From positions 445,803 through 509,802 of the forward strand of contig JAJDCG010000001.1 of NCBI GenBank assembly GCA_029260965.1: a stretch of DNA of 64,000 nt. The letters are read 5' to 3'. Below the pieces are notes generated by a model. The model saw only the letters and a list, made by a program, of their open reading frames with translations, did not search any database and had not been told where the DNA came from. Every line of letters begins with the position of its first letter. The first letter of the stretch is position 1. Shown here in pieces: positions 448 to 48,357 of the stretch. A program made the translations under genes and the position numbers. The stretch is from Candidatus Levyibacteriota bacterium (GTDB lineage Bacteria > Patescibacteriota > Microgenomatia > Levybacterales > UBA12049).

Positions 448-463
448 TCTCAAGCAAAAATAA

Positions 464-5028: not shown

Positions 5029-5070
5029 CCCCCTGGATGTAGGCATAGGATGTAGGATGTAAGATCTTAT

Positions 5071-5147: not shown

Positions 5148-5152
5148 TAATT

Positions 5153-6334: not shown

Positions 6335-6386
6335 CTGAGGATATATGATGTGAAAAATCATAAACAATAGGTTACAGCTCTAAATT

Positions 6387-6980
6387 ATGAGAGACAAAGA
6401 AGGAAATAAGTTAACAACAGAACAAGTCTTGCAAAAAGGCTTAATTAGAATAAAAACAGTTGTTCTTGAGTTATGGGTATTTATACTTCACTTGGTAGGA
6501 TATTTACCATCACATGCTGTTAGAAAGTTCTTTTATAGGATTTCTGGTATGAAAATAGGAGTTGGTTCAGTTATCCATATGGGTGCGAGGTTTTATAATC
6601 CAGCAAACATAAAGATTGGTAATGACAGTATTATAGGTGAGGGCATAGTTCTTGACGGACGGGATAAGCTAGTTATTGGTAGTCATGTAGATATTGCATC
6701 TGAAGTTATGATTTACAATGCCCATCATGACATATCTGATCCCAACTTCAGTGCGGTAACTGCTTCTGTTGAGATAGGCGATTATGTTTTTGTAGGTCCA
6801 CGTGTTGTAATTCTTCCTGGTGTGAAGATAGGAAAAGGTTCTGTCGTGGCGGCAGGTGCAGTTGTGACAAAAGATGTAGCAGATGGAATAATAGTCGGTG
6901 GAGTTCCTGCAAGAGAAATCGGCCAGAGAAAGCTAGAAGAGTTTGGTTATAAGCTGGGTCGCGCTGCGTGGTTTAGGTAG
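6387..6980 (+). CDS. hexapeptide-repeat (LbH) sugar O-acetyltransferase, WcaF/WbbJ-like
   Basis: Left-handed beta-helix hexapeptide repeats IGNDSIIGEGIVLDG..VIGSHVDIASEV..VEIGDYVFVGPRVVILPGVKIGKGSVVAAGAVVTKDV; ends GGVPAREI. Confidence 0.75.
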   Translation: MRDKEGNKLTTEQVLQKGLIRIKTVVLELWVFILHLVGYLPSHAVRKFFYRISGMKIGVGSVIHMGARFYNPANIKIGNDSIIGEGIVLDGRDKLVIGSHVDIASEVMIYNAHHDISDPNFSAVTASVEIGDYVFVGPRVVILPGVKIGKGSVVAAGAVVTKDVADGIIVGGVPAREIGQRKLEEFGYKLGRAAWFR

Positions 6981-6984
6981 ATTT

Positions 6985-7869
6985 ATGTTGCTTTCAATTA
7001 TTATAGTAAATTATAAAAAGCCTGAAATGACTTTTTCCTGCATAGACTCTATTTATTCAAATTTAGGCAAGGAAATTGGGGCGAGCATTGTGGAGGTTGT
7101 TTTGGTGGACAACGGATCAGATAAAAATGATCTGGGAAAACTCCGAAGCCTACTGGGTGAGAGAAAATATAAAAATTTCTCCCTCATAATAAATAAAGAG
7201 AATGGTGGTTTTTCAATTGGTTGTAATACGGGTGCCAAGTCTGCGAAGGGTGATTTGCTACTATTTCTTAATAATGATACTATCATTACAGATCGACGCC
7301 TCATGGACATGGCGTTTTTTCTCAATAATGGAGGGCATATTTCTATACTTGGTGGCAGCATGGTCAATGCCGATGGAACAGACCAGTCTTCATTTGGTAA
7401 GTTTTATACACCGTTTTATGTAGCACTTTTTATTTTGGGATTGGAACGTTTGGGAACGGTTAGTAAAAGTCCAAAGGATGTTAGCAAAGTTGATTGGGTT
7501 AAGGGAAGTTTGCTCATGGTAAAGCGAAAAGTTTTTGAGGAATTAAATGGTTTTGATGAGAAGATATTTATGTATATGGAAGACGTGGAGTTTTGTTATA
7601 GAGCAAAAAATGCCGGTTTTGATACTTATTTTTATCCATATATTTCAATAATACATAAAGATCAAGGATCATCAAGTAGGAGTTTTGCAGTGGTCAATAT
7701 ATATAAAAGCCTTTTATATTTCTACAAAAAACATAGAGGTGTTGTTGAGTATTGGTTTGTGAAATACGCTCTCATGGTAAAGGCATTAATTTTGATTATC
7801 GTTGGTAGAATAATCAGAAATTCTTATTTAATTACAACTTATGAAAAAGCTCTTGCAGTTGCACGATAA
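6985..7869 (+). CDS. GT2 glycosyltransferase (paralog of 13672..14583)
   Basis: MLLSIIIVNYKKPEMT, VDNGSDKND, FLNNDT, EDVEFCYRAKNAGF. Start set at the ATG at 6985; the track start 6943 would overlap the acetyltransferase. Confidence 0.75.
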   Translation: MLLSIIIVNYKKPEMTFSCIDSIYSNLGKEIGASIVEVVLVDNGSDKNDLGKLRSLLGERKYKNFSLIINKENGGFSIGCNTGAKSAKGDLLLFLNNDTIITDRRLMDMAFFLNNGGHISILGGSMVNADGTDQSSFGKFYTPFYVALFILGLERLGTVSKSPKDVSKVDWVKGSLLMVKRKVFEELNGFDEKIFMYMEDVEFCYRAKNAGFDTYFYPYISIIHKDQGSSSRSFAVVNIYKSLLYFYKKHRGVVEYWFVKYALMVKALILIIVGRIIRNSYLITTYEKALAVAR

Positions 7870-10909: not shown

Positions 10910-12352
10910 ATGGATTTTAGAAAAAACCTTCATTTTATTCTTTTGATTTTTATTTTTTTAGTTGGTTTCGTACTGAGGCTTTACAGGATTGATAATCCGA
11001 TAGCTGATTGGCATAGCTGGCGACAAGCTGACACCTCATCAGTATCAAGAGAGTTGTTGAAAAGTGATTTCGATTTCTTGCACCCCCGTTATCATGACCT
11101 CTCGAATGTGCCATCAGGCATGGATAATCCAGAAGGCTACCGAATGGTCGAGTTTCCTATCTATAATGCTGTTCAAGCGGGATTGTTTACCTTGTTGGGT
11201 GGATTTACAATCGAACAATGGGGGAGGATTGTTAGTATTTTTTCATCGGTTTTTGTTGCGATGTTTTTGTATTTGATAGTCAGCCGTCATAGCAATAAAA
11301 ACCTTGGTTTTCTCGCAGCTGCATTTTATTTACTCATCCCCTACAATATTTACTACAATAGGACAATTCTGCCCGATACGATGATGGCAATGGCCATACT
11401 TGGAGGAATATTTTTCTTCAATCTCTGGATTGAATCAGATAACAAAAAGCAACAAACAAAAAGCAGCAGAAGTTTTTATTTTTTACTTTCGATAATCTTT
11501 ACCTCATCGAGTTTTCTACTTAAACCGTATGCACTTTTATTTACCCTACCTATGATAGTTTTGGTTTATCAAAAGTGGGGTTTTAAAGCGATAAGAAAGT
11601 GGCAACTCTGGATTTTTACTGGCGTTTCTCTTTTGCCCTTATTTTTTTGGCGGCAGTGGATACTTCAATTCCCGACAGGAATCCCTGAAAATTTTTGGCT
11701 CTATAACGGTAATGGAATTCGTTTTCGTCCTGCATTTTTTCGCTGGATCGGATATGAGAGAGTAATCAAGCTAATTGGTGGTTATTTGGGATCAATTTTA
11801 CTTTTGTATGGTATTTTGAAACTAAAAGATCTGAAAGAGTGGATATTTTTCTTTTCATTTCTTGTAAGTAGTGGGCTTTATGTCATGATATTTGCAACTG
11901 GGAACGTGCAGCATGATTATTATCAGATTCTCATCATGCCAACTCTGTCAATTTTTTTTGCAATCGGTGCATACTTTTTATATAGATGGAATTTAACTGG
12001 AAAAGCAATATTATTTGTCGCTGTTGTTGGTATGTTTTATTTTGGTTGGGATCAGGTAAAGGACTATTTTAATATAAATAATCGATCAATTATAATAGCA
12101 GGTGAGGCCGTTGATAGGCTAACTCCCCAAGACGCTTTGGTAATTGCAGAGTATGGAGGAGACACATCGCTTCTTTATCAAACCAAACGTCGTGGTTGGG
12201 CAAGTCAGCAAAATTCAATCCCAGAGATGGTAGAAAAAGGTGCTTCGTATATGGTAATAGTTAATCCGCCTGATGAGGCAGTAAGCTTTGCTAAGCAGTA
12301 CAAGATAATTGAAAGTACTCCGCAATACGTTATTTTTGACATCCGTAAATAA
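10910..12352 (+). CDS. GT-C-fold polytopic membrane glycosyltransferase (PMT/ArnT-like)
   Basis: 480 aa with about 11 TM segments. N-terminal loop YRIDNPIADWHSWRQADTSSVSREL carries the acidic/aromatic motif seen in GT-C enzymes that use polyprenyl-P-sugar donors; soluble C-terminal domain. Family is inferred. Confidence 0.45.
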   Translation: MDFRKNLHFILLIFIFLVGFVLRLYRIDNPIADWHSWRQADTSSVSRELLKSDFDFLHPRYHDLSNVPSGMDNPEGYRMVEFPIYNAVQAGLFTLLGGFTIEQWGRIVSIFSSVFVAMFLYLIVSRHSNKNLGFLAAAFYLLIPYNIYYNRTILPDTMMAMAILGGIFFFNLWIESDNKKQQTKSSRSFYFLLSIIFTSSSFLLKPYALLFTLPMIVLVYQKWGFKAIRKWQLWIFTGVSLLPLFFWRQWILQFPTGIPENFWLYNGNGIRFRPAFFRWIGYERVIKLIGGYLGSILLLYGILKLKDLKEWIFFFSFLVSSGLYVMIFATGNVQHDYYQILIMPTLSIFFAIGAYFLYRWNLTGKAILFVAVVGMFYFGWDQVKDYFNINNRSIIIAGEAVDRLTPQDALVIAEYGGDTSLLYQTKRRGWASQQNSIPEMVEKGASYMVIVNPPDEAVSFAKQYKIIESTPQYVIFDIRK

Positions 12353-12457: not shown

Positions 12458-13660
12458 ATGAAGATATTAATCGTGTCGTCTTTTTTGCCATATCCACTTC
12501 ACTCTGGGGGGCATGTCAGGCTTTACAACCTAATCAAGGAATTGTCAAATAGGCATGAGATAACCCTTTTTTGTGAAAAAAGACCAAACCAGACAGTAGA
12601 GGAAATAAAGGCAGTTGAGAAGATTTGCAGGAAAGTCATAACTGTTGATAGGCGCAGACAGTGGTCACTGGAGAATATTCTCAAGAGTGCAATCTCAGTT
12701 CACTCATTTCTCATCAATGGACACACGCATCAGAAAATGAAGTATCTCTTAAAAAGAGAGTTGGAGAACGTAAAATACGATTTGATTCATATTGAAACAT
12801 TTTATGTTATGCAAAATCTTTCTCATACAAATATACCCAAAATTCTTGTAGAGCATAATATAGAATATAAAGTTTATAAGAAATTTTTATCCAGAGCACC
12901 ACATATTTTTAGACCACTTTTGGTGCTGGATGTTGTAAAAATCAAAAGAGAGGAGGAGAGGTTCTGGAAAAAAGCAGATAGACTGGTTGTGGTTTCAGAA
13001 GCTGATAGGAGGGTGATAAGAACTGCTGGATTTGATGCTGATATTGTTGCCAATGGAGTAGATATTGAGAAATTTGCATATAAGCAAAAAGCAATAAATG
13101 ATAAGCAAAAAGAAAGAAAAATTCTTTTTATTGGGGATTTTAAGTGGATACAAAACAGGGATTCTGTAAAATTTATAATTGAAGAGATCTGGCCATTGAT
13201 AAAGCAAAAAATAAAAAGTAATGAGCAAAAAGTAAATTTGTGGATTGTTGCTAGAGAAATTCCCCAATCAGTGAGAAAACTATCTGAAGACAATGATGTT
13301 ATTTTTGATGAAAAAAGCTCAGGATTGTCAACTGAGAAGATATTTCAAGCTGCTGATGTTTTACTTGCTCCAATAAGAGTTGGAGGTGGGACTAGTTACA
13401 AAATTTTAGAAAGTATGAGTTGTGGAACACCAGTTGTAACTACAAAAATGAGCGCAAACAGTCTGGGTGCAAAAGATAATGAAGACATTATGGCATCTGA
13501 TGAACCAATTGATTTGGCAACAAAAACCATAAATCTTTTGGAAGATGAAAAACTTTATGAAAAAATAAGTAAAAAGGGACGGAAGTTAGTAGAGGAAAAA
13601 TATACCTGGAAAGAGATTGCAAAAAAATTGAATGGGGTTTATGAAAGCGTTAGAAAATAG
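12458..13660 (+). CDS. GT4 glycosyltransferase
   Basis: MKILIVSSFLPYPLHSGGHVRLYNL and GGTSYKILESMSCGTPVVTT. Start moved to the Met after the track's short extension. Confidence 0.75.
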   Translation: MKILIVSSFLPYPLHSGGHVRLYNLIKELSNRHEITLFCEKRPNQTVEEIKAVEKICRKVITVDRRRQWSLENILKSAISVHSFLINGHTHQKMKYLLKRELENVKYDLIHIETFYVMQNLSHTNIPKILVEHNIEYKVYKKFLSRAPHIFRPLLVLDVVKIKREEERFWKKADRLVVVSEADRRVIRTAGFDADIVANGVDIEKFAYKQKAINDKQKERKILFIGDFKWIQNRDSVKFIIEEIWPLIKQKIKSNEQKVNLWIVAREIPQSVRKLSEDNDVIFDEKSSGLSTEKIFQAADVLLAPIRVGGGTSYKILESMSCGTPVVTTKMSANSLGAKDNEDIMASDEPIDLATKTINLLEDEKLYEKISKKGRKLVEEKYTWKEIAKKLNGVYESVRK

Positions 13661-13671
13661 TTATTAATTAT

Positions 13672-14583
13672 ATGATCGACCTATCAATAATTATTTTAAA
13701 TTATAATACTCGGGATTTGGCGCTTGGTTGCGTGAAATCGATTCAGGAAAATTATCCCCGTGAAGTTGCATCAGGAAAATTTGAAGTGATCTTGGCAGAT
13801 AACGCAAGTCCTGATGGATCTTTGGCTGCATTTGAGAAATTTGAAAAACAGACAAAAATTAAAACCTTTCAAGTTATTGATAATAAAAAAAATTTAGGCT
13901 TTGCTGCTGGCAATAACAGGGCAATTCCTTTCGCAAAAGGAAGATATGTGCTGTTTTTGAATCCAGATACTATTGTTGATTCAGTCACTTTGAGTCGCAT
14001 GATCGAGTTCATGGATAAAAATAAAGACGCTGGAGCAGCAACATGCAGGATAGAGTCATTTGATGGTCAATTTGACCAACCGTCTCATCGTGGATTTCCA
14101 ACCCCTTGGAATGCATTTACTCATTTTTCTCGGCTGGAGAAAGTCTTTCCAAAAACAAAATTGTTTGGTGGATATATTCAGGGCTTTAAAGATTTATCAA
14201 AAATTCACGAGGTTGATGTGATATCTGGTGCTTTTCTTTTTGTCAGACGAGATGCTGGAGAGAGAATTAATTGGTGGGATGAAGAATATTTTTTTTATGG
14301 TGAGGATATACAGTTTTGTTTTGATTTAAAAAAACAAGGATATAAAATTTATTTTGTTCCAGATGTCAGTATAACTCATCTGGGAAGCGCTGCATCAGGG
14401 ATTAGAAATAGAAATCATAATGAAATAACTGCTGATGCTTTTACTAAGAAAAAAATGCAAGCACATCGCTTTGACGCGATGAGAATATTTTATGAAAAAA
14501 ATTATAAAGATCATTATCCAAAGTTTGTAAATTGGATAGTCCATGTAGGAATAAATTTGCTCCACAAGAAACACTCCCAATGA
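13672..14583 (+). CDS. GT2 glycosyltransferase
   Basis: MIDLSIIILNYNTRDL, ADNASPDGS, FLNPDT, GEDIQFCFD. Confidence 0.75.
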   Translation: MIDLSIIILNYNTRDLALGCVKSIQENYPREVASGKFEVILADNASPDGSLAAFEKFEKQTKIKTFQVIDNKKNLGFAAGNNRAIPFAKGRYVLFLNPDTIVDSVTLSRMIEFMDKNKDAGAATCRIESFDGQFDQPSHRGFPTPWNAFTHFSRLEKVFPKTKLFGGYIQGFKDLSKIHEVDVISGAFLFVRRDAGERINWWDEEYFFYGEDIQFCFDLKKQGYKIYFVPDVSITHLGSAASGIRNRNHNEITADAFTKKKMQAHRFDAMRIFYEKNYKDHYPKFVNWIVHVGINLLHKKHSQ

Positions 14584-14604: not shown

Positions 14605-15726
14605 ATGAAAATTGGAATTGATTGTCGACTTTGGTCTCAGACTGGAGTTGGACGGTATATCAGGAATTTAGTAACTGAACTTTCAAAAATTGATAAGACA
14701 AACGAGTATGTCTTGTTTGTCAGAAGTCGTGATTTACAAGGTGTAAAAAAGCAGGTGTCAAATATTAGAAGGTGGAAGATTGTAATCGCTGACATCAGAT
14801 GGCATACTGTTGATGAACAGTTAAAGCTCCCAAGAATTTTGAATAATGAAGAGCTGGATTTGATGCATTTTCCTTATTTCTCCGCACCTGTTTTTTATAA
14901 GAAACCATTTGTAATTACAATTCATGACCTCATTATTAATCATTTTCCTACAGGAAAGGCATCTACTCTGCCAAAAACTTTTTATCATATGAAAAGAGTT
15001 GGTTATCAGTATGTGATAAGGCGTGCGGTTGAGAAGGCAGAAAAAATAATAGTACCATTAAATGCGGTGAAGGAAGATCTTGTAAAAACTCTTGATGTAG
15101 CATCTAAAAAAATTGTTGTTACAACAGAGGGGTTTGATAAAAAGATTCTCAGTAAAAGAAAAAAATATCAAACTCCGACGACACGATATGTTCTGTATGT
15201 TGGTAACGCCTATCCACATAAAAATTTAGAAAGGTTGATCAGGGCTTTTTCCTTGTTTAGGCAGGAGGGTTTTGGAGATGTGCAGTTAATCCTTGCAGGA
15301 AAAGATGACTATTTTTATAAAAAATTGGAGGAAAAAATAGAGAGAGAAAATTACACTGGTATTAATTTTATTCACAATGTTACTGATTCTGATCTATCCT
15401 ATCTATATCAAAATTCCCAATTTTTTATATCTGCATCGTTAATGGAGGGATTTGGACTGGTAGCTCTTGAAGCGATGGCAAACTCATCTTTGGTTGTGCT
15501 TTCTGATATTCCATCATTTAGAGAAGTGTGCAGTGATGCGCCAGTTTATTTTGATCCTCAATCAATTACCGACATTAAGGATAAAATGGTTTCTGCGTAT
15601 AAAATGTCAAAAATGCAGAAAAATAATCACGCTGAAAAGGGGATAAGAAGAACTGAGATTTTTTCTTGGGAAAAAATGGCAAGACAAACATTGCAAGTTT
15701 ATGAAAATTGCTCTCGTTTACGATAG
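14605..15726 (+). CDS. GT4 glycosyltransferase (full-length paralog of the truncated 4453 ORF)
   Basis: MKIGIDCRLWSQTGVGRYIRNLV and EGFGLVALEAMANSSLVVLSDIPSFRE. Confidence 0.8.
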   Translation: MKIGIDCRLWSQTGVGRYIRNLVTELSKIDKTNEYVLFVRSRDLQGVKKQVSNIRRWKIVIADIRWHTVDEQLKLPRILNNEELDLMHFPYFSAPVFYKKPFVITIHDLIINHFPTGKASTLPKTFYHMKRVGYQYVIRRAVEKAEKIIVPLNAVKEDLVKTLDVASKKIVVTTEGFDKKILSKRKKYQTPTTRYVLYVGNAYPHKNLERLIRAFSLFRQEGFGDVQLILAGKDDYFYKKLEEKIERENYTGINFIHNVTDSDLSYLYQNSQFFISASLMEGFGLVALEAMANSSLVVLSDIPSFREVCSDAPVYFDPQSITDIKDKMVSAYKMSKMQKNNHAEKGIRRTEIFSWEKMARQTLQVYENCSRLR

Positions 15727-16783
15727 GGTAAATAAATGGGGAGGAGCTGAAAGAGTTTTGCTGGCTTTGCATGAACTTTTTCCTAATGCACCTCTGTATA
15801 CGTCTGTTTATGATAAAAGTGCTGCCCCCTGGGCAGATGTATTTGACATAAAAACCTCATTTCTTCAGAAAATTCCTTTTGCCAGATCGCGCCATGAATT
15901 CCTGGCAGCTTTCATGCCATTTGCATTTGGAAAATTTAATTTTGATAAATATGATCTGGTTATTTCAGTTACTTCTGAGGCTGCAAAAGGAATAAAGACA
16001 GGAAAAAATACGAAACATATCTGTTACTGTTTGACACCTACTCGTTATCTATGGAGCGGATATGATGAGTATTTTACCAGTAAGTTTTTTAAATTTTTGA
16101 CTTACCCTCTTGTTTGGGTATTGAGAAACCTGGATTTGAGATCTGCCAATAAGCCGGATAAGTATGTCGCTATTTCAAAAGAAGTACAAAAGAGAATTAG
16201 AAGATACTATCAAAGGGAATCGGATGTAGTCTATCCACCAGTGACCTTGGGGAAGAAAAACGCTTTACGCACAAATCCTAACCCTTCACCCTATTACTTG
16301 ATTGTTTCACGGCTCTCAAAGTTTACTAGGTACAAAAAAGTTGATTTAGCTGTAAAGGCTGCTAACAAATTAGGAATCTCGCTCAAAGTAGTTGGTGATG
16401 GTAATCTAAAAAAAGACCTTGAAGGGATGGCTGGGCCGACGGTTGCGTTTTTAGGAAGATTAAGCGACAAAAAATTGTCGGAGTATTATAAAAATTGTCG
16501 TGCACTTATTTTCCCTGGTTTTGAGGATTTGGGGCTTGTGATGATAGAGGCGCAGACGTTTGGAAGGCCAGTTGTTGCTTATGGAAAGGGTGGTGCGCTG
16601 GAATTGGTGAACAAAAAAACAGGAATTTTATTTGAGAATCAAACAATAGATTCGTTAGTAAGAGCAATTAAAAAATTTGAAAAGATAGATTTTGATTCAG
16701 CAGACTGCATAGAGAATGCTAAAAGATTTGATATGCAAAATTTCAAAAAAGACTTTTTAGCTGTTGTTAATGAGCTTTTTTGA
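15701..16783 (+). CDS. GT4 glycosyltransferase
   Basis: MKIALVYDRVNKWGGAERVLLAL and GFEDLGLVMIEAQTFGRPVVAYGKGGALE. Confidence 0.75.
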   Translation: MKIALVYDRVNKWGGAERVLLALHELFPNAPLYTSVYDKSAAPWADVFDIKTSFLQKIPFARSRHEFLAAFMPFAFGKFNFDKYDLVISVTSEAAKGIKTGKNTKHICYCLTPTRYLWSGYDEYFTSKFFKFLTYPLVWVLRNLDLRSANKPDKYVAISKEVQKRIRRYYQRESDVVYPPVTLGKKNALRTNPNPSPYYLIVSRLSKFTRYKKVDLAVKAANKLGISLKVVGDGNLKKDLEGMAGPTVAFLGRLSDKKLSEYYKNCRALIFPGFEDLGLVMIEAQTFGRPVVAYGKGGALELVNKKTGILFENQTIDSLVRAIKKFEKIDFDSADCIENAKRFDMQNFKKDFLAVVNELF

Positions 16784-16806: not shown

Positions 16807-17889
16807 ATGAAGGTTGTAATATTTGCAGGAGGTGTAGGCACAAGATTGTGGCCACTCTCAAGGAAAAATACTCCTAAACAATTCGGTAAAATAATTGGTG
16901 ACAAATCAACGCTGCAGCTTGCGTATGAACGGGTTGCTCCGATTGTTGATCCTAAAGATATTTATGTATCAACAGGCTCCAGGTACATAAATGTGATTAA
17001 AGATCAGCTGCCAAACATTCCAAATGAAAATTTTATTTTTGAACCTGAAATGCGTGATGTTGGAGCAGCAGTTGGCCTAATAGCTGCAATTTTGAATAAA
17101 GTCGCCCCTGATGAGCCATTTATTATTCTTTGGAGCGATCAAGTCGTAAAAGAAGAAGAAGTATTTAGGAATGTTTTGAAACATGTAGCTGATATGTTGA
17201 ATGAAGAAAAGAGCAAAATCGTTTTTATCGCTCATACTTCCCGATTTGCCAGTCAAAATCTTGGATGGATAGAGAGAGGGAATAAAGTAAAGTCATTAAA
17301 TGGTTTTGATATGTATGAGTTTAAAAGTTGGCATTATAGACCAGAGCCTACTCTTGCTGAAGAATTTCACAAGAGTGAGAATCATTATTGGAATCCAGGA
17401 TATTTTGGTACAACAGCAAAATTTTTATTTTCTCTTTTCGAAAAATATGCCCCAGAAATGCATGCAAAGTTAAAGGAGCTGGGAGATGCTTATGGAACTA
17501 ACCGGTTTGAGAAAAAGCTTGAAGAGCTTTATCCTTCACTCGAGAAGATATCTTTTGATAATCTTATTTTAGAGAAGATTGACCCCAGTGATGGGTATGT
17601 GATTGGTTCTGATTTTGGTTGGAGTGATGTGGGTGCTTGGGAGTCATTAAAAGAGGCATTGACAGATAGTGAAGAGGAAAATTTAACCAAAGGACGCGTC
17701 ATGTTGAATGATTCCAGGGATGTTCTGGTTTATAACTATACTGATCAGATGGTTGTTGGCATTGATCTTGAAAAATTCTTGGTAATTAATACCGGGGATG
17801 TGCTTCTGGTTTGTCCCAAAGATTCTGTGCCAAAGATAAAAAAGTTTGTTGAAAAACTCAGTGGAACTGAAAATGAAGACTTAATTTAG
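16807..17889 (+). CDS. manC: sugar-1-phosphate nucleotidyltransferase, mannose-1-phosphate guanylyltransferase-like
   Basis: MKVVIFAGGVGTRLWPLSRKNTPKQF is the characteristic GxGxRLxPLS N-terminus of ManC/GMP-family nucleotidyltransferases. Symbol is tentative. Confidence 0.6.
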   Translation: MKVVIFAGGVGTRLWPLSRKNTPKQFGKIIGDKSTLQLAYERVAPIVDPKDIYVSTGSRYINVIKDQLPNIPNENFIFEPEMRDVGAAVGLIAAILNKVAPDEPFIILWSDQVVKEEEVFRNVLKHVADMLNEEKSKIVFIAHTSRFASQNLGWIERGNKVKSLNGFDMYEFKSWHYRPEPTLAEEFHKSENHYWNPGYFGTTAKFLFSLFEKYAPEMHAKLKELGDAYGTNRFEKKLEELYPSLEKISFDNLILEKIDPSDGYVIGSDFGWSDVGAWESLKEALTDSEEENLTKGRVMLNDSRDVLVYNYTDQMVVGIDLEKFLVINTGDVLLVCPKDSVPKIKKFVEKLSGTENEDLI

Positions 17890-39491: not shown

Positions 39492-40670
39492 ATGTTAATT
39501 CGTCCTCAATCAACAAATTCTGCCAAAATAAGAGTTGTCGGTATTGGCGGTGGGGGTACCAATGCGATTAATTCTATGATTGCCAATAGTTCCATAAGTG
39601 GTGTTGATTTCGTCGCTATCAACACAGACTCCCAAGCACTTCTTTTGAACAAAGCCGATTCCAAAATCCAAATAGGTGAGAATATTACCAAGGGTCTCGG
39701 ATCAGGAGGAGATCCAGAGATGGGAAGACAAGCAGCTGAAGAATCAGCAGAAAAAATAAAGAATATGCTTGAGGGATCAGACATGGTTTTTCTCACAGCA
39801 GGTATGGGTGGAGGAACAGGGACAGGAGCAACATCTGTTGTCGCCAGCATTGCAAAGGAAATAGGAGCACTGACAGTAGTTGTTGTAACCAAGCCGTTTC
39901 TTTTTGAAGGGACTCGTCGCATGGTTACAGCAGAAGAAGGTCTGGAGAGTCTTAAGGACAAAGCAGACACACTCATAGTTATTCCTAACCAGAGAATATT
40001 AGATGTGGTGGACCGTAAGCTCTCGCTTCTGGATGCATTCAAAGTGGCTGATAGCGTACTTACACAGGGAGTTCAGGGAATATCAGAAATAATTACACAA
40101 CCAGGACTTATAAATGTTGATTTTGCTGACGTACGCACGATTATGTCTGATGCTGGATCATCATTGATGGGGATTGGGTCTGGAATTGGTGAGAACAGAG
40201 CAGAATCAGCAGCGCGTGCAGCTATTTCAAGTCCGCTACTTGAGCTTTCTATGGATGGAGCTCGTGGGGTTCTTTTCAACATAGTCGGTGGTGAGGATCT
40301 AACCATGACAGAGGTTGATGAGGCAGCAAAGATTATTTCCAATGCAGCAGATCCAGATGCAAATATTATATTTGGTGCAACTATTGACGAGACCATGCAT
40401 GACCAGATCCGCATCACGGTGGTGGCAACTGGATTTGACCAGAACAAACAGCGACTGCAACAGTTCATGGTAGAACAGCCTGATCCACAGGTAGTCAGAA
40501 ATCAACAGGGAGCAAATCAAAACCAGAACCCATCCCAACAGGCAGTAGGTGAAAATGGGTCATCTGAGGATCAGGATTCTGGTAATAATGGAGATCCAGT
40601 AGTTACTAAAAAAGAAGAAAGCACAGAAGACGATTGGGACATCCCCGCATTCCTGAGGCAAAGGAATTAG
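39492..40670 (+). CDS. ftsZ: cell division GTPase FtsZ
   Basis: [28 protein letters not shown]; C-terminal tail [10 protein letters not shown]. Confidence 0.95.
40641..40670. repeat. left copy (ftsZ 3' end) of an imperfect 30-bp direct repeat; partner at 44283..44312
   Basis: atccccgcattcctgaggcaaaggaattag versus atccccgcatttctaagacagagaaattga: 23/30 identical. Both encode IPAFLRQRN*. Confidence 0.85.
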
Positions 40671-41647
40671 CTTAGTTCTTCAATCAGGCTTTTGTGCCCC
40701 AAGCTTATCCAATATTCTGTTTCTTTAGTATCGTTCCTGTTTATATACTTTTCTTGGTAACCTCCGAGGAGCTCCATTGCAACACCAGCTACTGTGTAAT
40801 CGTATAGCCATTTTCGTTCCTGTGGAGTTAATTTATTAAATTTATCATACTCATTTGCTATTAGCTCTATGCGGCTTCTCAGTGTCATTACGCTATTGTC
40901 ATCATGCATGAGATTTGCTGCTATTACTGCAATTTCTTGAATTCGTGGATACCAGTTAGCTACAGAAAAATCTAAAATATAAATATCTCCTTTTTTGCTC
41001 TTCAAGACATTCGCTTTTGTAAAATCTCCATGGACAAATGCATGTGGTAAATCGTCAGCGGGGATTGACTTATATCTTTTTATTGTTTGTTCTACGAGAG
41101 GTATGTCTTCTGGTTTTAAGTATTGTTTTGTTTTATCAAACAGTATTTGAATATTTGGGATTGCCCAACTATCGAAAATATATGTTGGTTTGTAGTCAAT
41201 TTTATTCACTTTTGCAGCTTGTTCAATAATTGATTTTCTTTCTTCATTATTTGGGGGACGATTTAGCTCAAAAAAAGTATTCCCATCTATATAATCCATT
41301 AATATAAGATTTAATCCGTTTGCTTGTTTGTCCGAATAAACAATACCACCATCGTGTTTTTGGAGGAGAGATGGGTGATTAACTCCAGAGGCGATTGCCC
41401 GTTCCATGATGGTGGTGTATCGATCTATATCCTCTGGAGTTCTGTCTTTCTGAAAGATTTTTGCTAGGTATTTATCTTTCCCTACATATATTATGACATT
41501 GCAGTCTTCATATCCAACTTCAATAACAGAAAAATCATCAGGTATTCCTATCGTATACGCTTTACTAAGTCTGTTGATAACTGGTTTGAGGTCTCCTGAA
41601 TAATTAAGTCTATTTATAGGCGTTCTTTTATTAATTTTTCCTGTCAT
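40667..41647 (-). CDS. phosphotransferase (APH/choline-kinase-like) family kinase
   Basis: YLAKIF (beta3 Lys), [12 protein letters not shown] (Brenner HGDxxxxN catalytic loop), [10 protein letters not shown] (metal-binding D). Confidence 0.7.
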
Positions 41648-44282
41648 AGTGTAATTATATCAAGATATACTTAAATTATCTAACGGGAAGACATTTGTTA
41701 TAATTAATCCGATGAAGAATAACATTTTATATATCCTAACAGGGAGGTCGTCTACTGGGAAATGATGCTACTCACCCAGACCCGAGTGATGAAGGCGTAT
41801 CAATGGAGGAGGCAAGGGACGTAATACAATTTTTAGATTATTTAACTGAATATCTTTTTGACCTTCCCAAAAGGATTACTGATTATAGAAACCGATCGGA
41901 AAGAGAATAAAAATATCTCATAATAAATTAGCTAGCCTTGAGAGAATTTTAATCTATATAATTTAGCCTCAAATATATGTCGTACTAGCTCCATTATGCG
42001 ACATAAATTAGGAATGCGAATAAATACTTTGTTTACAATATTACTTCTGAAAAGAGACAGCAATGATGATATAATTTGCTAAATGTCCATACAGAAACAA
42101 GTAAAAATAAATAATGCTAGCGTAGAGCAAGCTGGCTTATCAAGAGATTTTTCAGCAGACATAGCGGAATTCATTTGGAATGGATTCGATGCAGGAGCAA
42201 GTGAGGTAAGAATTGCTTATATAATAAATGAAATTAAAGGGGTAGAATCTTTATCTATTGAAGATAACGGAGAGGGAATTGATTACTCTACAATAGAGAA
42301 AACGTTTGGAATTTTATTAGACTCAAGTAAGAGTTCTCTTGCGGGATCATCATCATACGTTCACGGCAAAAGAGGAATTGGGCGTTTTTCTTTTAAGTAT
42401 TTTGCTCACATTGCAGAATGGATTAGTGTTTTCAAAAAGGATAATAAAAAATATCGTTTTTCTATTAAAATCTCAGCAGACAATAAAGAAAAGTATTCTA
42501 TATCAGATGATCTGGAAGATGTTAAAGATGTTGACATTTCTACCGGATGCAGGGTGAACTTTTCAGTTCTTAACGATTCTTCCGTTAATGAGTTAGTCAC
42601 CCCTTCATTCATTGAATCATTGAGGAGAGAATTCGGTTGGTATCTTCATCTGAATAAAGAACGAGGGTTTAAGCTGTTTATAAATGATAAGGTTTTGGAC
42701 TATGAATCAAGCATTATAGATAGTGACGAAAAGAAGGTAAAAATATCTCATGGTAAAGAATCCTATATCTTTGGCTTAAATTATATTGAATGGAAGAAGA
42801 ATACAGGAGATGATTATTATTATAATTATTTTCTAGACACAAACTATATAGAAAAAGGCAAAAAAACAACCTCGTTCAATAAAAATGGGATTAATTTTCA
42901 TCATAGCGTTTATATAGTTAGTAGTTTTTTTGAAAATTACAGTCCATCATCAAACAAGCAGGAAAATAAAAGTAGTTTGTTTGAAGACGATTTTATTTTT
43001 AAGGAGCTTAATAAGGAGCTGCACCTTTTCTTACAAGAAAAACAAAAGAAATTTATAAATAGAAATGCGGAAATTTTAATACAGGAGCTTGAACAGGAAA
43101 AAGTTTTCCCTGAATTTGAAAATAATGAATTAGGAGAAGACAGAAAAAGAGAATTTGTTAACTTAACAAAATCACTTTATCGTTTAGAGCCAAAGTTATT
43201 TATAAAGGTGAGCCCCTTACAAAAAAGATCGTTTCTTTCTTTTCTAAAACTTTCGATTGACTCAAATGAAAGAGAAAATGTAGTAAAAATTATTGAATCT
43301 ATTGTTGATATGACAGCAGAAGAAAGGGCAGAGCTTGCAAAAATATTGCAAGTTACAACTTTAAGCAATATAGTTTATGTTATGAAAGATATTGTAGGTA
43401 GAATAAAAAATGTAGAAATACTTAAAAGCCTAGTTAATGATTTTGAAAAGTATACTAACGAAAGAGATAATATTCAAAAAATAATGGAGAAATGTTTCTG
43501 GTTATTTGGAGAACAATATACTGTTGTTTCATCAGACAAGAGTTTTACCTCGGCTTTGCAGAAATATTACATAGACATATTGAATGAAGATTTATCTCAT
43601 GAATTAAAATTATCTCTAGATCATAAGGATAGTAAAAAAAGACCAGACCTATTCCTTTGCAGGCAATATCCCCTCACCCAGACGCCTACACGCCTTTCTG
43701 AAGACAATATAATTATAGAATTAAAAAGACCAAGTGTAGATATAGGCATTACTCAAATGAGGCAATTAGAGGATTATATGGATTTTATAGTTAAGAGTTC
43801 AAATTTTAGTGGCACAATTCGCAACTGGAAATTTTATATTGTTGGTAAAAATTTAACAGGTGAGGTACAAGCTCGTGTTGATGAGAATAAAAATAAAGGA
43901 GAAGAGCAATTTCTTTATCTAAGAATAAAGAATTTTGCTATATATGCATTGAATTGGGATGATTTATTCCAGTCATTTAAGTTAAAAGCTGGATTTATCC
44001 TTAGCAAACTAGATATAAAAACAGAAGTGATAATTGATGAATTAAAAAAGGAGAATATATCGCCGGCAGGCATGCCTGATTATTTGACAAAAATAGTATC
44101 TAATGAGAAATCTGTTTCTTCTCCTCCCGCAAATCCTATGTAATTAGTGTTCGGATAGTTTAGTATTGACTTAGATGTTTTTCTCTGTTAAATTCTACTT
44201 GTACTTTGATGACATAGAAAGGCTATTTATTCAAAGGTGCTTTTTGGAAAACCTGAAGCGAGACATGGGGTTTGTCTATAAA
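40671..44282. mobile_element. putative integrated accessory segment (about 3.6 kb) between the two ftsZ-3'-end repeats; carries the APH-like kinase and the GHKL-nuclease gene; no integrase present
   Basis: Flanking imperfect direct repeat of the 3' end of a protein-coding gene. Accessory-type cargo. Removing the segment gives a convergent ftsZ -> <- HK arrangement. Confidence 0.4.
42083..44143 (+). CDS. 686-aa fusion protein: N-terminal GHKL (Bergerat-fold, MORC/MutL-like) ATPase, helical middle region, C-terminal PD-(D/E)xK nuclease-like domain
   Basis: ADIAEFIWNGFDAGASEVRI (motif I, ExxxNxxDA), IEDNGEGIDYSTIEKTFG (motif II, DNGxG), HGKRGIGRFS (motif III, GxxGxG). C-terminus: KKRPDLFLCRQ...NIIIELKRPSV...QMRQLEDY (D...ExK...Q). 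Confidence 0.65.
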   Translation: MSIQKQVKINNASVEQAGLSRDFSADIAEFIWNGFDAGASEVRIAYIINEIKGVESLSIEDNGEGIDYSTIEKTFGILLDSSKSSLAGSSSYVHGKRGIGRFSFKYFAHIAEWISVFKKDNKKYRFSIKISADNKEKYSISDDLEDVKDVDISTGCRVNFSVLNDSSVNELVTPSFIESLRREFGWYLHLNKERGFKLFINDKVLDYESSIIDSDEKKVKISHGKESYIFGLNYIEWKKNTGDDYYYNYFLDTNYIEKGKKTTSFNKNGINFHHSVYIVSSFFENYSPSSNKQENKSSLFEDDFIFKELNKELHLFLQEKQKKFINRNAEILIQELEQEKVFPEFENNELGEDRKREFVNLTKSLYRLEPKLFIKVSPLQKRSFLSFLKLSIDSNERENVVKIIESIVDMTAEERAELAKILQVTTLSNIVYVMKDIVGRIKNVEILKSLVNDFEKYTNERDNIQKIMEKCFWLFGEQYTVVSSDKSFTSALQKYYIDILNEDLSHELKLSLDHKDSKKRPDLFLCRQYPLTQTPTRLSEDNIIIELKRPSVDIGITQMRQLEDYMDFIVKSSNFSGTIRNWKFYIVGKNLTGEVQARVDENKNKGEEQFLYLRIKNFAIYALNWDDLFQSFKLKAGFILSKLDIKTEVIIDELKKENISPAGMPDYLTKIVSNEKSVSSPPANPM

Positions 44283-44312
44283 ATCCCCGCATTTCTAAGA
44301 CAGAGAAATTGA
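44265..44312 (+). CDS. 15-codon mini-[18 protein letters not shown] whose last 9 codons and stop copy the FtsZ C-terminal tail; probably the displaced original ftsZ 3' end
   Basis: Read directly. Could be a non-expressed att-like remnant. Confidence 0.25.
   Translation: MGFVYKIPAFLRQRN
44283..44312. repeat. right copy of the imperfect 30-bp ftsZ-3'-end direct repeat
   Basis: See 40641..40670. Confidence 0.85.
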
Positions 44313-44315
44313 GCT

Positions 44316-45443
44316 TTACTTCCCCCGGGGTTTTTTGGTGATAGGGAGTTCTATTGTGAATGTCGATCCTGCTCCTTCACGGCTTTGGATTTTTATATTT
44401 CCACGATGTGCCTTTATTATTTGTGACGTGATATAGAGCCCGACACCCAGGCCTTTGTGTCCGTTGGCATTTCCACGTTCAAATCTTTCAAAAATCCGTT
44501 CCTTTTCATCTGTAGGTATACCTATTCCCTGATCAATAACTGTAATATACGCATTTGATCTACGTTTTTCAGTTCTTATTTCAATGGGTTTCCCCTCGCC
44601 ATATTTGATTGCGTTTGCGAGCAGGTTGCTTATAGCTTGTTCAATTCTTAGTTTGTCCCAGTAGCCATTGATTGGTCCCTTGATATCCAATTTTATTTTA
44701 TATCCATCATGTTTGATTTTTTCACTAAATCTATCTGCTACATCTTTGGTTAGTTTCGCAATGTCAATTTCTTCCTTTTCCAGGCTCAGCTTGCCTGTTG
44801 TGATGAGAGAGACGTTGAGAAGATCGCTTATCATACGTGAGAGACGAAGCGATTGTTGCTCAGTGCTTTCAAGCATTTTCATCAGCTTGGCAACGGAGAA
44901 ATTGGCAAGTGAGACACTTTTTATATTATGTAGCGCAGTCTGGAGCTGGAGGAGCATAGCTGAGAGCGGTGTTTTGAGTTCATGGGAAGCGATAGATAGG
45001 AATTCATCTCTGGCCTGGATTTCTTTTTTGTCTTTTATTTTTTCAGCCTGAAGCTTCTCGATTAGTGCTAGATTTTCCTTCTCTCTTTTTTTGAATGCAG
45101 CGGATTCATTCGTATTTGCTAGTTTGTCGATTAAGAGGCAGGTAATGTAACCAGCAATTATAAAAATTACAGTCCGTACCAAAAATACCGCGAAGCTGGA
45201 AGAAGAGTTATTTGGGAAAAAGAAAAAGTAGTATGAGCCAAGCGTGATGAGTATTATGCTAAAGATTCCAGCGCGTATTCCCCTTAGATAAGCAGCAATC
45301 ACTATTGCCAGGAAGTTGAAAGCAAAAAAATTATCTCCAGTAATTGGTAAAAAAGCCCATGTAAGACCAATTGAAGCAATACCTATGAATGTTGCAACTC
45401 CATAAGTATTGAAAAAATTACGTACGTTTTCTTTACTTATCAT
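44316..45443 (-). CDS. sensor histidine kinase (membrane-anchored, HisKA + HATPase_c); no response regulator nearby
   Basis: ASHELKTPLSAM (H-box), LLANAIKYGEG (N-box), DQGIGIP (G1), GLGVGLYI (G2); N-terminal TM bundle. Start set at MISKEN so that it does not overlap ileS. Confidence 0.8.
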   Translation of the reverse strand: MISKENVRNFFNTYGVATFIGIASIGLTWAFLPITGDNFFAFNFLAIVIAAYLRGIRAGIFSIILITLGSYYFFFFPNNSSSSFAVFLVRTVIFIIAGYITCLLIDKLANTNESAAFKKREKENLALIEKLQAEKIKDKKEIQARDEFLSIASHELKTPLSAMLLQLQTALHNIKSVSLANFSVAKLMKMLESTEQQSLRLSRMISDLLNVSLITTGKLSLEKEEIDIAKLTKDVADRFSEKIKHDGYKIKLDIKGPINGYWDKLRIEQAISNLLANAIKYGEGKPIEIRTEKRRSNAYITVIDQGIGIPTDEKERIFERFERGNANGHKGLGVGLYITSQIIKAHRGNIKIQSREGAGSTFTIELPITKKPRGK

Positions 45444-45534
45444 ACGTTTATTGATATCCACAATATAGCACAAATACCCTAAAAGTCCAGTAGTGAGCTT
45501 GAATAAATTGGGAATTTGAACTAGAATTAAGCAT

Positions 45535-48357
45535 ATGTTCAAGCCGGTAAAAAGCGCTGTTAACTTTCCAGAGCAGGAGGAAAAACTGATAAAATTTTGG
45601 AAAAAAAATAAGATTTTTGAAAAATCAGTTGAAAAAGATGCGCCAAATGGTTCGTGGACTTTTCTGGACGGACCGCCTTTTGTAACAGGTATGCCTCATT
45701 ATGGATCGCTTTTATCCAGTCTTCCAAAAGATTTATTTGGTAGGTATTTTACCATGAAGGGATATAGTGTCAGGCGTGTTTGGGGATGGGATGGACACGG
45801 ACTTCCAATTGAAAACAAAGTTGAGCAGGAACTTGAAATTCAAAGTAAAAAAGATATCGAAGAAGTGGTAAGTGTTAAGAAGTTTATTGATGAGTGCAAG
45901 CATTATGTAAATATGGTTTCAAGTGACTGGGAATGGTATGTGGATAGGATTGGCAGATGGGTAGATTTCAAAAATGCATATAAAACTTGGGACAGAGATT
46001 ATATGGAGTCTGTGATGTGGGTTTTTAAACAAATGTATGACAAGGGATTTGTGTACAAGGGGCTTCGGGTTTCACTTTATTGTCCTCATTGCGTAACGCC
46101 AATTTCTAATTTTGAAGTTGCGATGGATTCAGATAATTACAAAGATGCACTTGATCCATCTACAATTTACAAATATGAGCTGGAAGGCGAAAAAGATACT
46201 TACATCCTTGCATGGTCAACAACTCCCTGGAATAAAATAGCAACACCAGCTCTTGCTGTTAATCCCAAAATGAAGTACGTGAAAGTTAAGCAGGGAAAGG
46301 AATTTTATGTTTTGGCTGAGACGACACAAAAAGCGCTTGATGGGGAATCTGAAATCGTTGGGAGATTAACAGGTAAAGATCTAGTTGGTAAAAAATTTGT
46401 TCCGCATTATGATTATTACAAAAATCGTGCAAAAGGAAAAGTATTTGAAATATTGGGAGGAGATTTTGTGACTGCTGAGGAGGGAACAGGTGTTGTGACA
46501 ATTGCTGCTTATGGTGAAGAAGATATGAAGCTGATGAAAGAAGAAGGGGTTCACACTGAGCTTCATCTTGATGAGGAAGGACATGTTAAAGAAGACGTGC
46601 CTATTTTTGGCGGAATGTATTATCTCAAAGCCAACAAGGCAGTTGATGAAGATCTTGAAAAGCGTGGTCTTATTTATAAAAAAGTTGATTATACTCACCG
46701 GGTTCCTCTTTGTTGGAGATGTCACACTAGGCTTTACTATGCGCCAATTGATGCATGGTTTGTAAATGTTCAGGATCTCAAGCCTCTGATGAAAAAAACA
46801 AACTCTGATATTGGTTGGTACCCAAAGCATTTTAAAAATGGAAGATTTTTAAAAAGTTTGGAAAATGCGCCTGATTGGAATATTTCTCGCAATAGATACT
46901 GGGGTTCTCCTGTTCCTGTTTGGGAATGTGAGTGCGGGGAGAGATTTGTTCCTGGATCCATAAAAGAACTCGAGGATGCATCAGGCAGAAAAGTGACCGA
47001 GCTTCACAAGCCTGATATTGATGAGGTAATGGTTAAGTGTAAGAAGTGTGGTAAGGATGCAAAGCGAGTAAGTGAGGTTTTGGATAGTTGGATTGAGGCA
47101 GGATCTGCTTCTTTTGCAGAGCGACATTTTCCGTTTAAAAAGGATGAAAAACTAGATGATTTTTTTCCTCCTGATTTTATTGCTGAATATACGGGTCAGA
47201 TCAGAGCTTGGTTTTATGTACTTCATGTGATTGGCGCTGCGATTTATAAATCTCCTTCATTTAAAAATGTTTTGGTCGAGGGTGTGATACTTGGAACAGA
47301 TGGCAGAAAAATGAGTAAGAATTTTAAAAATTATCCAGATCCTCGAGAAATGCTTGATAAGTACGGCGGAGATGCGTTGAGGTTCTATCTGCTTGGTTCA
47401 CCCGTGATGAAGGGTGAGGATATCTTGATTTCAGAGGATGCGTACAAATCCCAAATAAGAGGAACCATGCTTATTCTTTGGAATACATATAATTTTTTTG
47501 TAACTTATGCCAATTTGGACGCTTGGCATCAGGCAAAAAACATCAAGCAAAAAGAAATAAGTAAAAACATTTTGGATATTTGGGTTTTAGCGTTGCTAAA
47601 TAATTTAATTTCTGATGTGACAAAAAGCTTAGATAATTATGATACAGTAACGGCAATTGAATCGATAAAAAAATTCGTTGATGATTTTTCAACTTGGTAT
47701 GTTAGAAGAAGTAGGAACAGGGTTGGGCCAAGCGCAACTGATCAAGATGATAAAGATGCATTTTATTCTACCTCTTTTGAGGCATTAACTACTCTTTGTA
47801 AATTGCTTGCGCCAATTGCGCCTTTTATATCTGATTCAATTTATAAAAATTTGACAGAGGAAGAATCAGTGCATTTAGCTGATTGGCCTTTGTCAAACTC
47901 AAAACTTACAACACAAAACTCAAAACTGATTAATGATATGAAAATGGTTAGAAAAATTGTTGAGATGGGATTGTCCGTTAGAAAAGATGCAGGTATAAGA
48001 GTAAAACAACCACTCTCAAGCCTTACTGTTTTGGGTACAGATGAATCTATACTAGATGAAGCTTTGCATTTTCTTATAAAAGATGAGGTTAATGTAAAAG
48101 ATGTAAAATTTGAAAAAGCAAAAGAGTTAAAAGTTGATCTAGATACAAAAATAACACCAATTCTTGAAGCAGAAGGAAAAGCGCGTGATATTATCAGAAT
48201 GATTCAGGAAGAGAGGAAAATGCTTAGTACTGCACTTGATGAAAAGGTGGATGTATTTTTGCCTGAATGGCCCGTTATGTGTGAAGAAGAAATAAAAAGA
48301 AAAGCGCTTATAAATGAATTGTTAAATGGAGACTTTAAAGTCAAAAGATTGTCATGA
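45535..48357 (+). CDS. ileS: isoleucine--tRNA ligase (type 2-like)
   Basis: PPFVTGMPHYGS (HIGH-region variant), GWDGHGLPIE, DWNISRNRYWGSPVPVW, RKMSKNFKN (KMSKS). 940 aa. Confidence 0.8.
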   Translation: MFKPVKSAVNFPEQEEKLIKFWKKNKIFEKSVEKDAPNGSWTFLDGPPFVTGMPHYGSLLSSLPKDLFGRYFTMKGYSVRRVWGWDGHGLPIENKVEQELEIQSKKDIEEVVSVKKFIDECKHYVNMVSSDWEWYVDRIGRWVDFKNAYKTWDRDYMESVMWVFKQMYDKGFVYKGLRVSLYCPHCVTPISNFEVAMDSDNYKDALDPSTIYKYELEGEKDTYILAWSTTPWNKIATPALAVNPKMKYVKVKQGKEFYVLAETTQKALDGESEIVGRLTGKDLVGKKFVPHYDYYKNRAKGKVFEILGGDFVTAEEGTGVVTIAAYGEEDMKLMKEEGVHTELHLDEEGHVKEDVPIFGGMYYLKANKAVDEDLEKRGLIYKKVDYTHRVPLCWRCHTRLYYAPIDAWFVNVQDLKPLMKKTNSDIGWYPKHFKNGRFLKSLENAPDWNISRNRYWGSPVPVWECECGERFVPGSIKELEDASGRKVTELHKPDIDEVMVKCKKCGKDAKRVSEVLDSWIEAGSASFAERHFPFKKDEKLDDFFPPDFIAEYTGQIRAWFYVLHVIGAAIYKSPSFKNVLVEGVILGTDGRKMSKNFKNYPDPREMLDKYGGDALRFYLLGSPVMKGEDILISEDAYKSQIRGTMLILWNTYNFFVTYANLDAWHQAKNIKQKEISKNILDIWVLALLNNLISDVTKSLDNYDTVTAIESIKKFVDDFSTWYVRRSRNRVGPSATDQDDKDAFYSTSFEALTTLCKLLAPIAPFISDSIYKNLTEEESVHLADWPLSNSKLTTQNSKLINDMKMVRKIVEMGLSVRKDAGIRVKQPLSSLTVLGTDESILDEALHFLIKDEVNVKDVKFEKAKELKVDLDTKITPILEAEGKARDIIRMIQEERKMLSTALDEKVDVFLPEWPVMCEEEIKRKALINELLNGDFKVKRLS

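Follow-up and report, generated by a model that had tools for sequence, protein, structure and literature searches.

A repeated ftsZ 3' end in a Levyibacteriota genome as a probable product of mobile element integration

The ftsZ locus

The stretch of DNA analyzed here (the window) comprises 64,000 nucleotides (nt) from Candidatus Levyibacteriota bacterium, a member of the Microgenomatia within the Patescibacteriota (assembly GCA_029260965.1, contig JAJDCG010000001.1, positions 445,803 to 509,802 of the forward strand). The window contains the gene ftsZ, the last 30 nt of which recur downstream as an imperfect direct repeat, and the two copies of the repeat bracket a segment with a gene content of its own. 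The two copies are probably the attL and attR cores that arose when a mobile element integrated site-specifically within the final codons of ftsZ. The features of the locus, with the basis for each assignment given in parentheses, are the following.

39492-40670, plus strand: ftsZ, the target gene, located after ftsA in a conserved dcw-type cluster (Pfam Tubulin and FtsZ_C)
40641-40670, plus strand: proximal copy of the repeat, the functional ftsZ terminus, attL-type (sequence comparison)
40644-40651, plus strand: likely crossover region CCCGCATT (5' limit of homology among copies)
40667-41647, minus strand: APH-family phosphotransferase (Pfam PF01636)
41740-41907, plus strand: remnant of an open reading frame (ORF), 56 codons, in the spacer between the APH and GHKL genes (no start codon, no Pfam match)
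41913-42008, plus strand: conserved non-coding block 5' of the GHKL gene (blastn to the element at locus L193)
42083-44143, plus strand: GHKL (HATPase_c_3) ATP-binding protein of 686 amino acids, cargo (Pfam PF13589)
44160-44282, plus strand: putative right arm (attR arm) of the element (alignment to the right arms of other elements)
44283-44312, plus strand: distal copy of the repeat, the putative attR core and displaced ftsZ terminus (sequence comparison)
44316-45542, minus strand: histidine kinase (HK), convergent with the distal copy and outside the bracketed segment (Pfam HisKA and HATPase_c)
45535-48357, plus strand: ileS, found as a conserved neighbour downstream of ftsZ in relatives and marking the far limit of the variable region (tblastn)

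The stop codon of the APH gene (TAA, minus strand) overlaps that of ftsZ by 4 nt, and the TGA of the distal copy (44310-44312) stands 3 nt before the minus-strand stop codon of the HK gene (44316-44318), a spacing which had been given in an earlier sequence-only reading of the locus and with which the coordinates agree. The G+C content of the bracketed segment is 27-34%, compared to 40-45% in ftsA/ftsZ and HK.

The repeated terminus in the window

The proximal copy, ATCCCCGCATTCCTGAGGCAAAGGAATTAG, and the distal copy, ATCCCCGCATTTCTAAGACAGAGAAATTGA, are both translated as IPAFLRQRN followed by a stop, and they are identical at 23 of 30 bases. The internal differences (TTC/TTT, CTG/CTA, AGG/AGA, CAA/CAG and AGG/AGA) all occur at third codon positions and are all synonymous (5/5), while the stop codons differ (TAG in the proximal copy, TGA in the distal one); these properties, which the sequence-only reading had reported, were recomputed and hold. 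The first of the differences, TTC in the proximal copy versus TTT in the distal copy, is diagnostic and is kept in the window. The possibility, raised in the same reading, that the 30-mer is simply a common sequence is not borne out in the window, where these two copies are the only sites on either strand with at least 20/30 matches and where none of 500 shuffles reached 23/30 (the best reached 22). The similarity ends at the repeat edge, since the neighbouring 30-mers of the two copies share only 8-11 of 30 positions in ungapped comparison, and a search of 40000-46000 for further remnants of the core gave none above 19/30. The same arrangement is present in an independent Logan assembly of SRR15505512. 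The segment is bracketed by direct repeats, one of which serves as the functional end of ftsZ, and the replacement leaves the encoded protein unchanged.

Copies of the FtsZ tail in other Microgenomates

At each locus, both strands were searched for 27-mers that precede a stop codon and encode at least six of the nine residues of the FtsZ tail of that locus. Extra copies of the tail were found in the window and at loci L002, L005, L009 (two copies), L013, L086 (two), L088 and L089 (three). All of these lie downstream of ftsZ, with none in the 10 kb upstream, and the copy-bearing loci all belong to Microgenomates, with FtsZ proteins that are 62-76% identical. Later examples were obtained from L192 (two copies), L193, L195, L201/L203 (two) and L205. 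The copies match the tails that are specific to their hosts, ending in RHRN in L086, in RQKN in L005, L013, L089 and L192, and in RQRS in L205. Over the codons A-F-L-R-x-x-N in 17 copy pairs from 12 loci, 63 of the 64 differing codons are synonymous, a fraction which is inflated because the copies were detected by amino-acid identity, but which far exceeds what the detection threshold imposes. The 5' limit of homology lies inside ATC CCC GCA TT in every case, and the copies of all genomes have CCGCATT or CCCGCNTT at that limit. Because the limit is fixed, it points to a defined exchange site rather than to illegitimate joins.

Several of these loci have further peculiarities. Locus L002, from the closest GTDB relative (FtsZ 76% identical), carries the sole inverted example, a copy of the ftsZ terminus on the minus strand at approximately 12842-12871, 1.7 kb downstream and after genes for a membrane protein and a class-IV aminotransferase-like protein; whether an inversion produced it may be asked. 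The array with three far copies in L089 contains three paralogous small ORFs (11210-11524, 13419-13793 and 17620-17889; MITDADVTKLKKTFATKDDLK…) that carry KFATKDDLK repeats. A 741-amino-acid cassette ORF in L086 (9568-11793) has three LAGLIDADG-like repeats as judged by eye (WLGGFFDTSGS, LAGIFDSKSVF and WLSGMFEIGSE). A second class of arm, a GC-rich hairpin (GGCGAGGCTCC.GCTTCGCAGCGAGGCGAGCGCC…), occurs in L086 (9351-9418 and approximately 11885-11950), in L085 after the ftsZ stop and in L013 (11066-11112), in the form of units of 20-40 nt, consisting of a solo arm and a degenerate terminus, directly after ftsZ; these units resemble cassettes, now empty or collapsed, from a different element family that uses the same core. 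In L013, L192 and L201 a MazE/AbrB-Fic/Doc cassette starts with TTGACA and a palindromic GTTATAACATGTTATAAC operator right after the ftsZ stop, so that the promoter of a toxin-antitoxin pair abuts ftsZ.

Integrases and complete elements at the ftsZ end

Integrases were assigned by the Pfam family PF00589 (tyrosine integrase). A degenerate pattern scan of IMG/VR returned a contig, IMGVR_UViG_3300027835_000014 (L163), that has two copies of the ftsZ tail and no ftsZ body. The two copies enclose a 5.9-kb element that encodes, among other products, a tyrosine integrase (int2) and an Mrr-type nuclease, and on the other side are the gene for another integrase (int1) and genes for phage tail and lysis functions. 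The two integrases of this 34.8-kb contig are unrelated (29% identity) and flank one copy of the ftsZ terminus within positions 1-7400, an arrangement which suggests either a prophage in tandem with a satellite-like island of 5.9 kb, or an island inside the phage's own attP.

In L008, L101 and L165 the ftsZ stop is followed immediately by a homolog of int2. The order in L165 is ftsZ-int-terminase-portal-capsid, with genes for terminase-like, portal, Mu-F and major capsid proteins, and its gene content marks this locus as a prophage at the ftsZ end. More than 300 close homologs of int2, with identities of 64-77%, were retrieved from Patescibacteria by database search, and all five of the homologs that were looked up (L192, L193, L195, L204 and L205/206) lie beside ftsZ. 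Together with L008, L101, L165 and L163, this gives nine of nine independent contexts in which the integrase adjoins the ftsZ end or a copy of it. The complete elements, measured from the ftsZ end to the far copy, are the following.

L193: 7.9 kb
L195: 6.5 kb
L192: 7.0 kb
L163: 5.9 kb
L205: 9.4 kb

Their cargo includes a KAP NTPase, a zeta toxin, helix-turn-helix regulators, TerB_N and the Mrr nuclease, and no conjugation or mobilisation genes were seen in the elements. The terminus that is attached to ftsZ in the integrase-bearing elements (…GCATTCCTAAGACAGAGGAATTAA), together with the left arm that follows it, is nearly identical across hosts: the termini L193_Z and L195_Z agree at 30/30 positions, and L163_A and L192_f1 are 1-2 nt off. 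The left arm contains a terminator and holds a hairpin of the form AGCACC-loop-GGTGCTTTTTT. The distal (attR) termini, by contrast, differ from host to host. Because the attL terminus and left arm are nearly constant while the attR termini vary, the proposal of the sequence-only reading that the element supplies a replacement terminus and displaces the original one is supported.

Relationship of the window segment to the element family

The host of L193 is the closest relative found, with amino-acid identities of 82% for FtsZ, 79% for FtsA and 77% for IleRS. The arm and far copy of the window (44185-44310) are 91% identical to the right end of the L193 element (16597-16723, 127 nt; blastn), and the flanking ftsA/ftsZ/ileS DNA of the two genomes is 73-75% identical. 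The right arm aligns across eight elements from six genomes, with a conserved length of approximately 130-135 nt; the arms with which it was aligned include those of the L163, L195, L192, L009, L089 and L205 elements. The idea that an element integrated into the ftsZ 3' end is thus supported both by the tyrosine-integrase elements and prophage that occupy the same site and by the homology of the far-copy flank to their right ends.

A promoter-like TTGACT-N17-TAAATT with a TG extension is present in the window at 44166-44194 (plus strand), is conserved in L163, L193 and L195, and faces out over the att core. In a circular form, where the integrase gene would be co-directional with it, it could serve to transcribe that gene, or it could restore the expression of downstream host genes. 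The arm also contains two TTGA(A/T)G boxes, which could be arm-type binding sites. A second region of homology to L193 is found within the segment, where 41913-42008 matches 15582-15676 of that locus (73% over 96 nt, E = 2e-8; blastn). This 96-nt block precedes different cargo in the two elements, the GHKL gene in the window and a zeta-toxin gene in L193, and a short inverted repeat (ATGTCG…CGACAT) lies inside it; a role as promoter or operator module for the cargo is possible.

At the ends of the segment, homology to integrase-bearing members covers the core and the right arm but no left arm. The proximal terminus in the window runs into the APH gene rather than into a canonical left arm, and on this comparison only the right end of the segment is demonstrably element-derived.

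Gene order in relatives and the cargo of the segment

The closest FtsZ proteins, with identities of 60-82%, come from Levyibacteriota, Gottesmanbacteria and other Microgenomates, which are members of the Candidate Phyla Radiation (CPR), and tblastn across their loci gives the gene order ftsA-ftsZ-(variable gap)-ileS. The gap between ftsZ and ileS is 44-430 nt in L092, L094, L098, L100, L097, L096, L090, L014 and L024, 1-7 kb in other relatives, and 4.9 kb in the window. No orthologs of the APH, GHKL or HK genes were found next to ftsZ in the 159 loci first examined. The variable gaps and the lack of such orthologs therefore make the ftsZ-ileS interval a hot spot of variable content, and HK is no ancestral neighbour of ftsZ but probably an older accretion between ftsZ and ileS. 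An empty site in which ftsZ is followed directly by the convergent HK gene, as the sequence-only reading had predicted, was seen in no relative; the recurrent unoccupied state is instead ftsZ followed by ileS at 44-430 nt. The HK gene, when called from a TTG start, overlaps the start of ileS head to head by 8 nt (45535-45542), and gene calling in the Logan assembly extends it to 441 amino acids.

Homologs of the APH protein are 57-72% identical across CPR classes. In one Levybacteria genome, represented by L201-L203, the array has the order ftsZ, MazE-Fic, copy 1, ORF247, copy 2, followed by APH on the opposite strand, LapA, NUDIX and ileS. The stop of copy 2 in L201/L203 overlaps the APH stop with the same 4-nt geometry as the ftsZ and APH stops in the window, and the homology between the window and the L203 unit of far copy 2 and APH begins at 40644, inside the core. 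The terminus and the convergent APH gene are thus inherited or moved as a block, in keeping with the rule by which each terminus is carried along with the DNA to its right. APH homologs are also repeatedly linked in the CPR to genes for NUDIX and HIT hydrolases (L199 3867-6800; L202/L203 7094-8981), a linkage more suggestive of a conserved module with a nucleotide-related role than of an antibiotic kinase.

Homologs of the GHKL protein are spread over many phyla in defence-type neighbourhoods (type III restriction-modification, AAA_15 with DUF4276, a serine recombinase), and judging from these neighbours the GHKL ATPase is cargo of the defence-island type. PADLOC gave no match for it and only weak kinase-type matches for APH. 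The sequence-only reading described the bracketed genes as purely accessory, which does not clearly hold for APH, as this gene is conserved across the CPR and forms a unit with the terminus in L201/L203. In the spacer between the two genes, the open frame at 41740-41907 (…MEEARDVIQFLDYLTEYLFDLPKRI…) resembles the C-terminal remnant of a decayed gene; a guess that it is a DUF4145 fragment is unsupported, as Pfam gave no match.

Proposed mechanism

In the proposed mechanism, a tyrosine-integrase family of Microgenomates uses the conserved codons of the FtsZ C-terminal peptide (…IPAFLRQ[RK]N and stop) as its attB. The family comprises islands of 6-9 kb and at least one prophage, and its attP would carry a synonymous version of the FtsZ C-terminal codons. 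With strand exchange probably taking place within CCCGCATT, integration would join the ftsZ body to the last six codons and stop encoded by the element, followed in intact elements by an intrinsic terminator. The previous terminus would be displaced to the far end, where it would be preceded by the conserved right arm of approximately 135 nt, so that the distal copy would be the native one in the window genome. Repeated integration would generate cassette arrays between ftsZ and ileS. The window segment (40671-44282) is probably a member or derivative of the family that lacks an integrase, as indicated by its homologous right arm, core and internal non-coding block. The repeats, the family itself, the association of its integrases with the site and the homology of the arms are shown directly, whereas the crossover position, the native copy in this genome and the way in which the segment came to lack an integrase are inferred.

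Several observations weigh against this mechanism for the window, in addition to the inflation of the synonymous fraction by the detection method. Searches by tblastn and hidden Markov models confirmed the statement of the sequence-only reading that the segment contains no integrase and found neither an integrase nor a remnant of one in the whole window, while in the related elements an integrase is encoded beside the att site; because of this absence, the segment would have to be a decayed or trans-mobilised derivative of the integrase element family. The canonical left arm and terminator are likewise absent from it. Six degenerate pattern scans of IMG/VR for a free attP or a circular junction gave integrated or array forms only, namely one contig with two integrated-type copies (L162/L163/L188); matches in L197/L198 were rejected as unrelated coding matches in GC-rich phage. 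The unoccupied ftsZ-ileS junctions come from relatives, not from the same species or from near-identical genomes. Finally, the APH gene in L203 follows the last of the far copies, where the cassette array has its distal end, and between the window and L203 the amino-acid identity of APH (68%) is similar to that of FtsZ (67%) and IleRS (65%), so the ftsZ-APH junction could be an old or resident one that did not arrive with the element, a complication for any history with a single insertion. Because the divergence of APH is like that of the core genes, two histories remain for the window: the terminus, APH, GHKL and the arm may have been inserted as one composite cassette into an older junction between ftsZ and the convergent HK gene, or a more complex series of events may have taken place around an old ftsZ-APH junction.

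Alternative explanations

The explanation that comes closest to the proposed mechanism is that the segment never had an integrase, and that it is a cassette mobilised in trans by co-resident integrases, in a capture resembling that of cis-mobilisable elements (CIMEs), integrative mobile elements exploiting Xer (IMEX) or integrons; the arrays would then be a platform for gene capture rather than sets of decayed elements. This is a possibility, although a distinctly less probable one. Many core-bounded units of 0.04-3.7 kb lack an integrase, including single-gene, toxin-antitoxin and NYN cassettes, some units are solo arms of 38 and 87 nt, and the window has an intact and strongly conserved right arm and core, all of which such a capture would account for. 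On the other hand, no cassette was observed to occupy different places in the arrays while being more similar than the host genes are, the MazE-Fic cassette, approximately 68% identical between genomes whose ftsZ is approximately 70% identical, shows no sign of recent transfer, the spacer in the window contains decay remnants, and no integrase resides in the window. A related and equally tentative suggestion is that the ftsZ end itself is an integron-like capture platform, where integrases of a minority of cassettes or of phages act in trans on core-bounded segments. Integrase-less cassettes would be shuffled, excised and re-inserted, and each terminus would periodically become a real FtsZ C-terminus, so displaced copies would retain synonymous differences only, even where the cassette seems as old as a split at approximately 70% ftsZ identity. 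The distal termini of the MazE-Fic cassettes still encode the FtsZ tail, which hints that termini are periodically re-used by excision and re-insertion or are otherwise constrained.

The sequence-only reading had offered decay and homologous exchange as the two ways to account for the missing integrase; the former is kept, as a decayed or trans-mobilised form, while the latter is unlikely. It would involve homologous recombination, or homology-facilitated illegitimate recombination, after DNA uptake, anchored in ftsZ and independent of a recombinase, with the repeat as a by-product. CPR genomes often encode competence machinery, and the lack of an integrase in the window is in keeping with such uptake, but across more than 15 independent copies the 5' limit stays inside one stretch of approximately 8 nt (CCCGCATT), the copies come with a conserved arm, and a dedicated integrase family is found at the site. 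It is more improbable still that the distal copy is a functional mini-gene (44265-44312) or an RNA that mimics the FtsZ C-terminal peptide and, for example, competes for FtsA binding. The window has an in-frame ATG six codons upstream, the amino-acid sequence of the copies is strongly preserved, and the promoter-like site in the arm faces the copy. However, L193 has ATC in place of this ATG, the Ile codon in L009_f2, L089_f1 and L205 comes directly after an in-frame TAA, the copies in L005, L013 and L088 lack the Ile-Pro codons, and a permissive Rfam search of 40400-45000 matched no relevant RNA family; the peptide-mimic reading was rejected for want of a conserved start codon and on account of the in-frame stops before several copies. 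There is just as little probability that the site is a dif-like site for chromosome-dimer resolution, served by the Xer recombinases of the host, with the inserts as IMEX elements. Some sources label the integrases 'XerD', and IMEX elements typically form tandem arrays and inserts that lack an integrase, but here the integrase is encoded within the variable, bracketed element and is missing from most ftsZ loci, and the GC skew is positive across the whole 64 kb with no terminus-type switch; this reading was rejected on both the skew and the position of the integrase. A Tn7-like element was also considered and rejected, since the genes of the segment are only the APH kinase and the GHKL ATPase and the repeat consists of approximately 30 nt of coding sequence rather than a 5-bp duplication.

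Implications

The CPR, or Patescibacteria, have tiny genomes, few characterized mobile elements and scarce genetic tools. Under the proposed mechanism, a widespread integrase family has a short, defined attB inside an essential and universally present gene, which would explain the recurrent hypervariable spot between ftsZ and ileS that collects defence and toxin-antitoxin genes. An essential division gene could be targeted safely by an element that carries synonymous codons for the FtsA-binding C-terminal peptide together with its own terminator. The integrase, with its attP and attB, is a possible tool for site-specific integration in these organisms, and in annotation the short ftsZ-tail 'pseudogenes' downstream of ftsZ would be read as att scars that delimit islands.

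Comparison with known systems

The mechanism is a classical one, and it is the target (the codons of the FtsZ C-terminal peptide) and the host clade that appear to be undescribed: a literature search returned no account of ftsZ serving as an attachment site or of this family of integrases, and nothing that links integron-type gene cassettes with Patescibacteria. Phage 21 and e14 in the E. coli icd gene use a tyrosine integrase and an attB in the 3' end of a conserved protein gene, and they provide a synonymous replacement 3' end which leaves the protein unchanged while the original end is displaced to the far junction. The ftsZ elements resemble them in the integrase, the 3'-end attB, the synonymous replacement and the displaced original end. 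They differ in that the target is approximately 27 nt and the stop of ftsZ rather than approximately 165 nt of icd, that the hosts are CPR Microgenomates, that arrays of small cassettes occur, and that the copy in the window has no integrase.

Site-specific integration into 3' ends, tandem accretion at a regenerated att site and integrase-less derivatives are also features of SGI1, which integrates into the 3' end of trmE and forms tandem arrays (PMC2297512), of Tn5253, which integrates in rbgA (PMC8571831), and of the integrative mobilisable elements and CIMEs, the latter being att-flanked derivatives that lack an integrase (reviewed in PMC5704250). The ftsZ elements are much smaller than these, have a different target gene and integrase clade, and showed no conjugation or mobilisation genes. 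The tycheposons of Prochlorococcus are small tyrosine-recombinase elements at the 3' ends of conserved genes (bioRxiv 10.1101/2020.12.28.424599), and they share with the ftsZ elements partial target repeats, cargo islands in streamlined genomes and integrase-less satellites. Tycheposons, however, are cyanobacterial and target tRNA genes, and it is because the target here is protein-coding that the repeats show a synonymous-only pattern.

The likeness to integrons lies in the co-oriented arrays of short cassettes, often with a single gene or a toxin-antitoxin pair, each ending in a recombination site. An integron was nevertheless rejected for the window, where ftsA and ftsZ, and no intI, lie upstream, and where the core ATCCCCGCATT…AAT has no GTTRRRY on either strand. 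More generally, the ftsZ arrays have no intI beside them, no GTTRRRY core and no imperfect palindrome of the attC type; their recombination site is instead a mimic of coding sequence, and the integrase, when present, is located inside a cassette.

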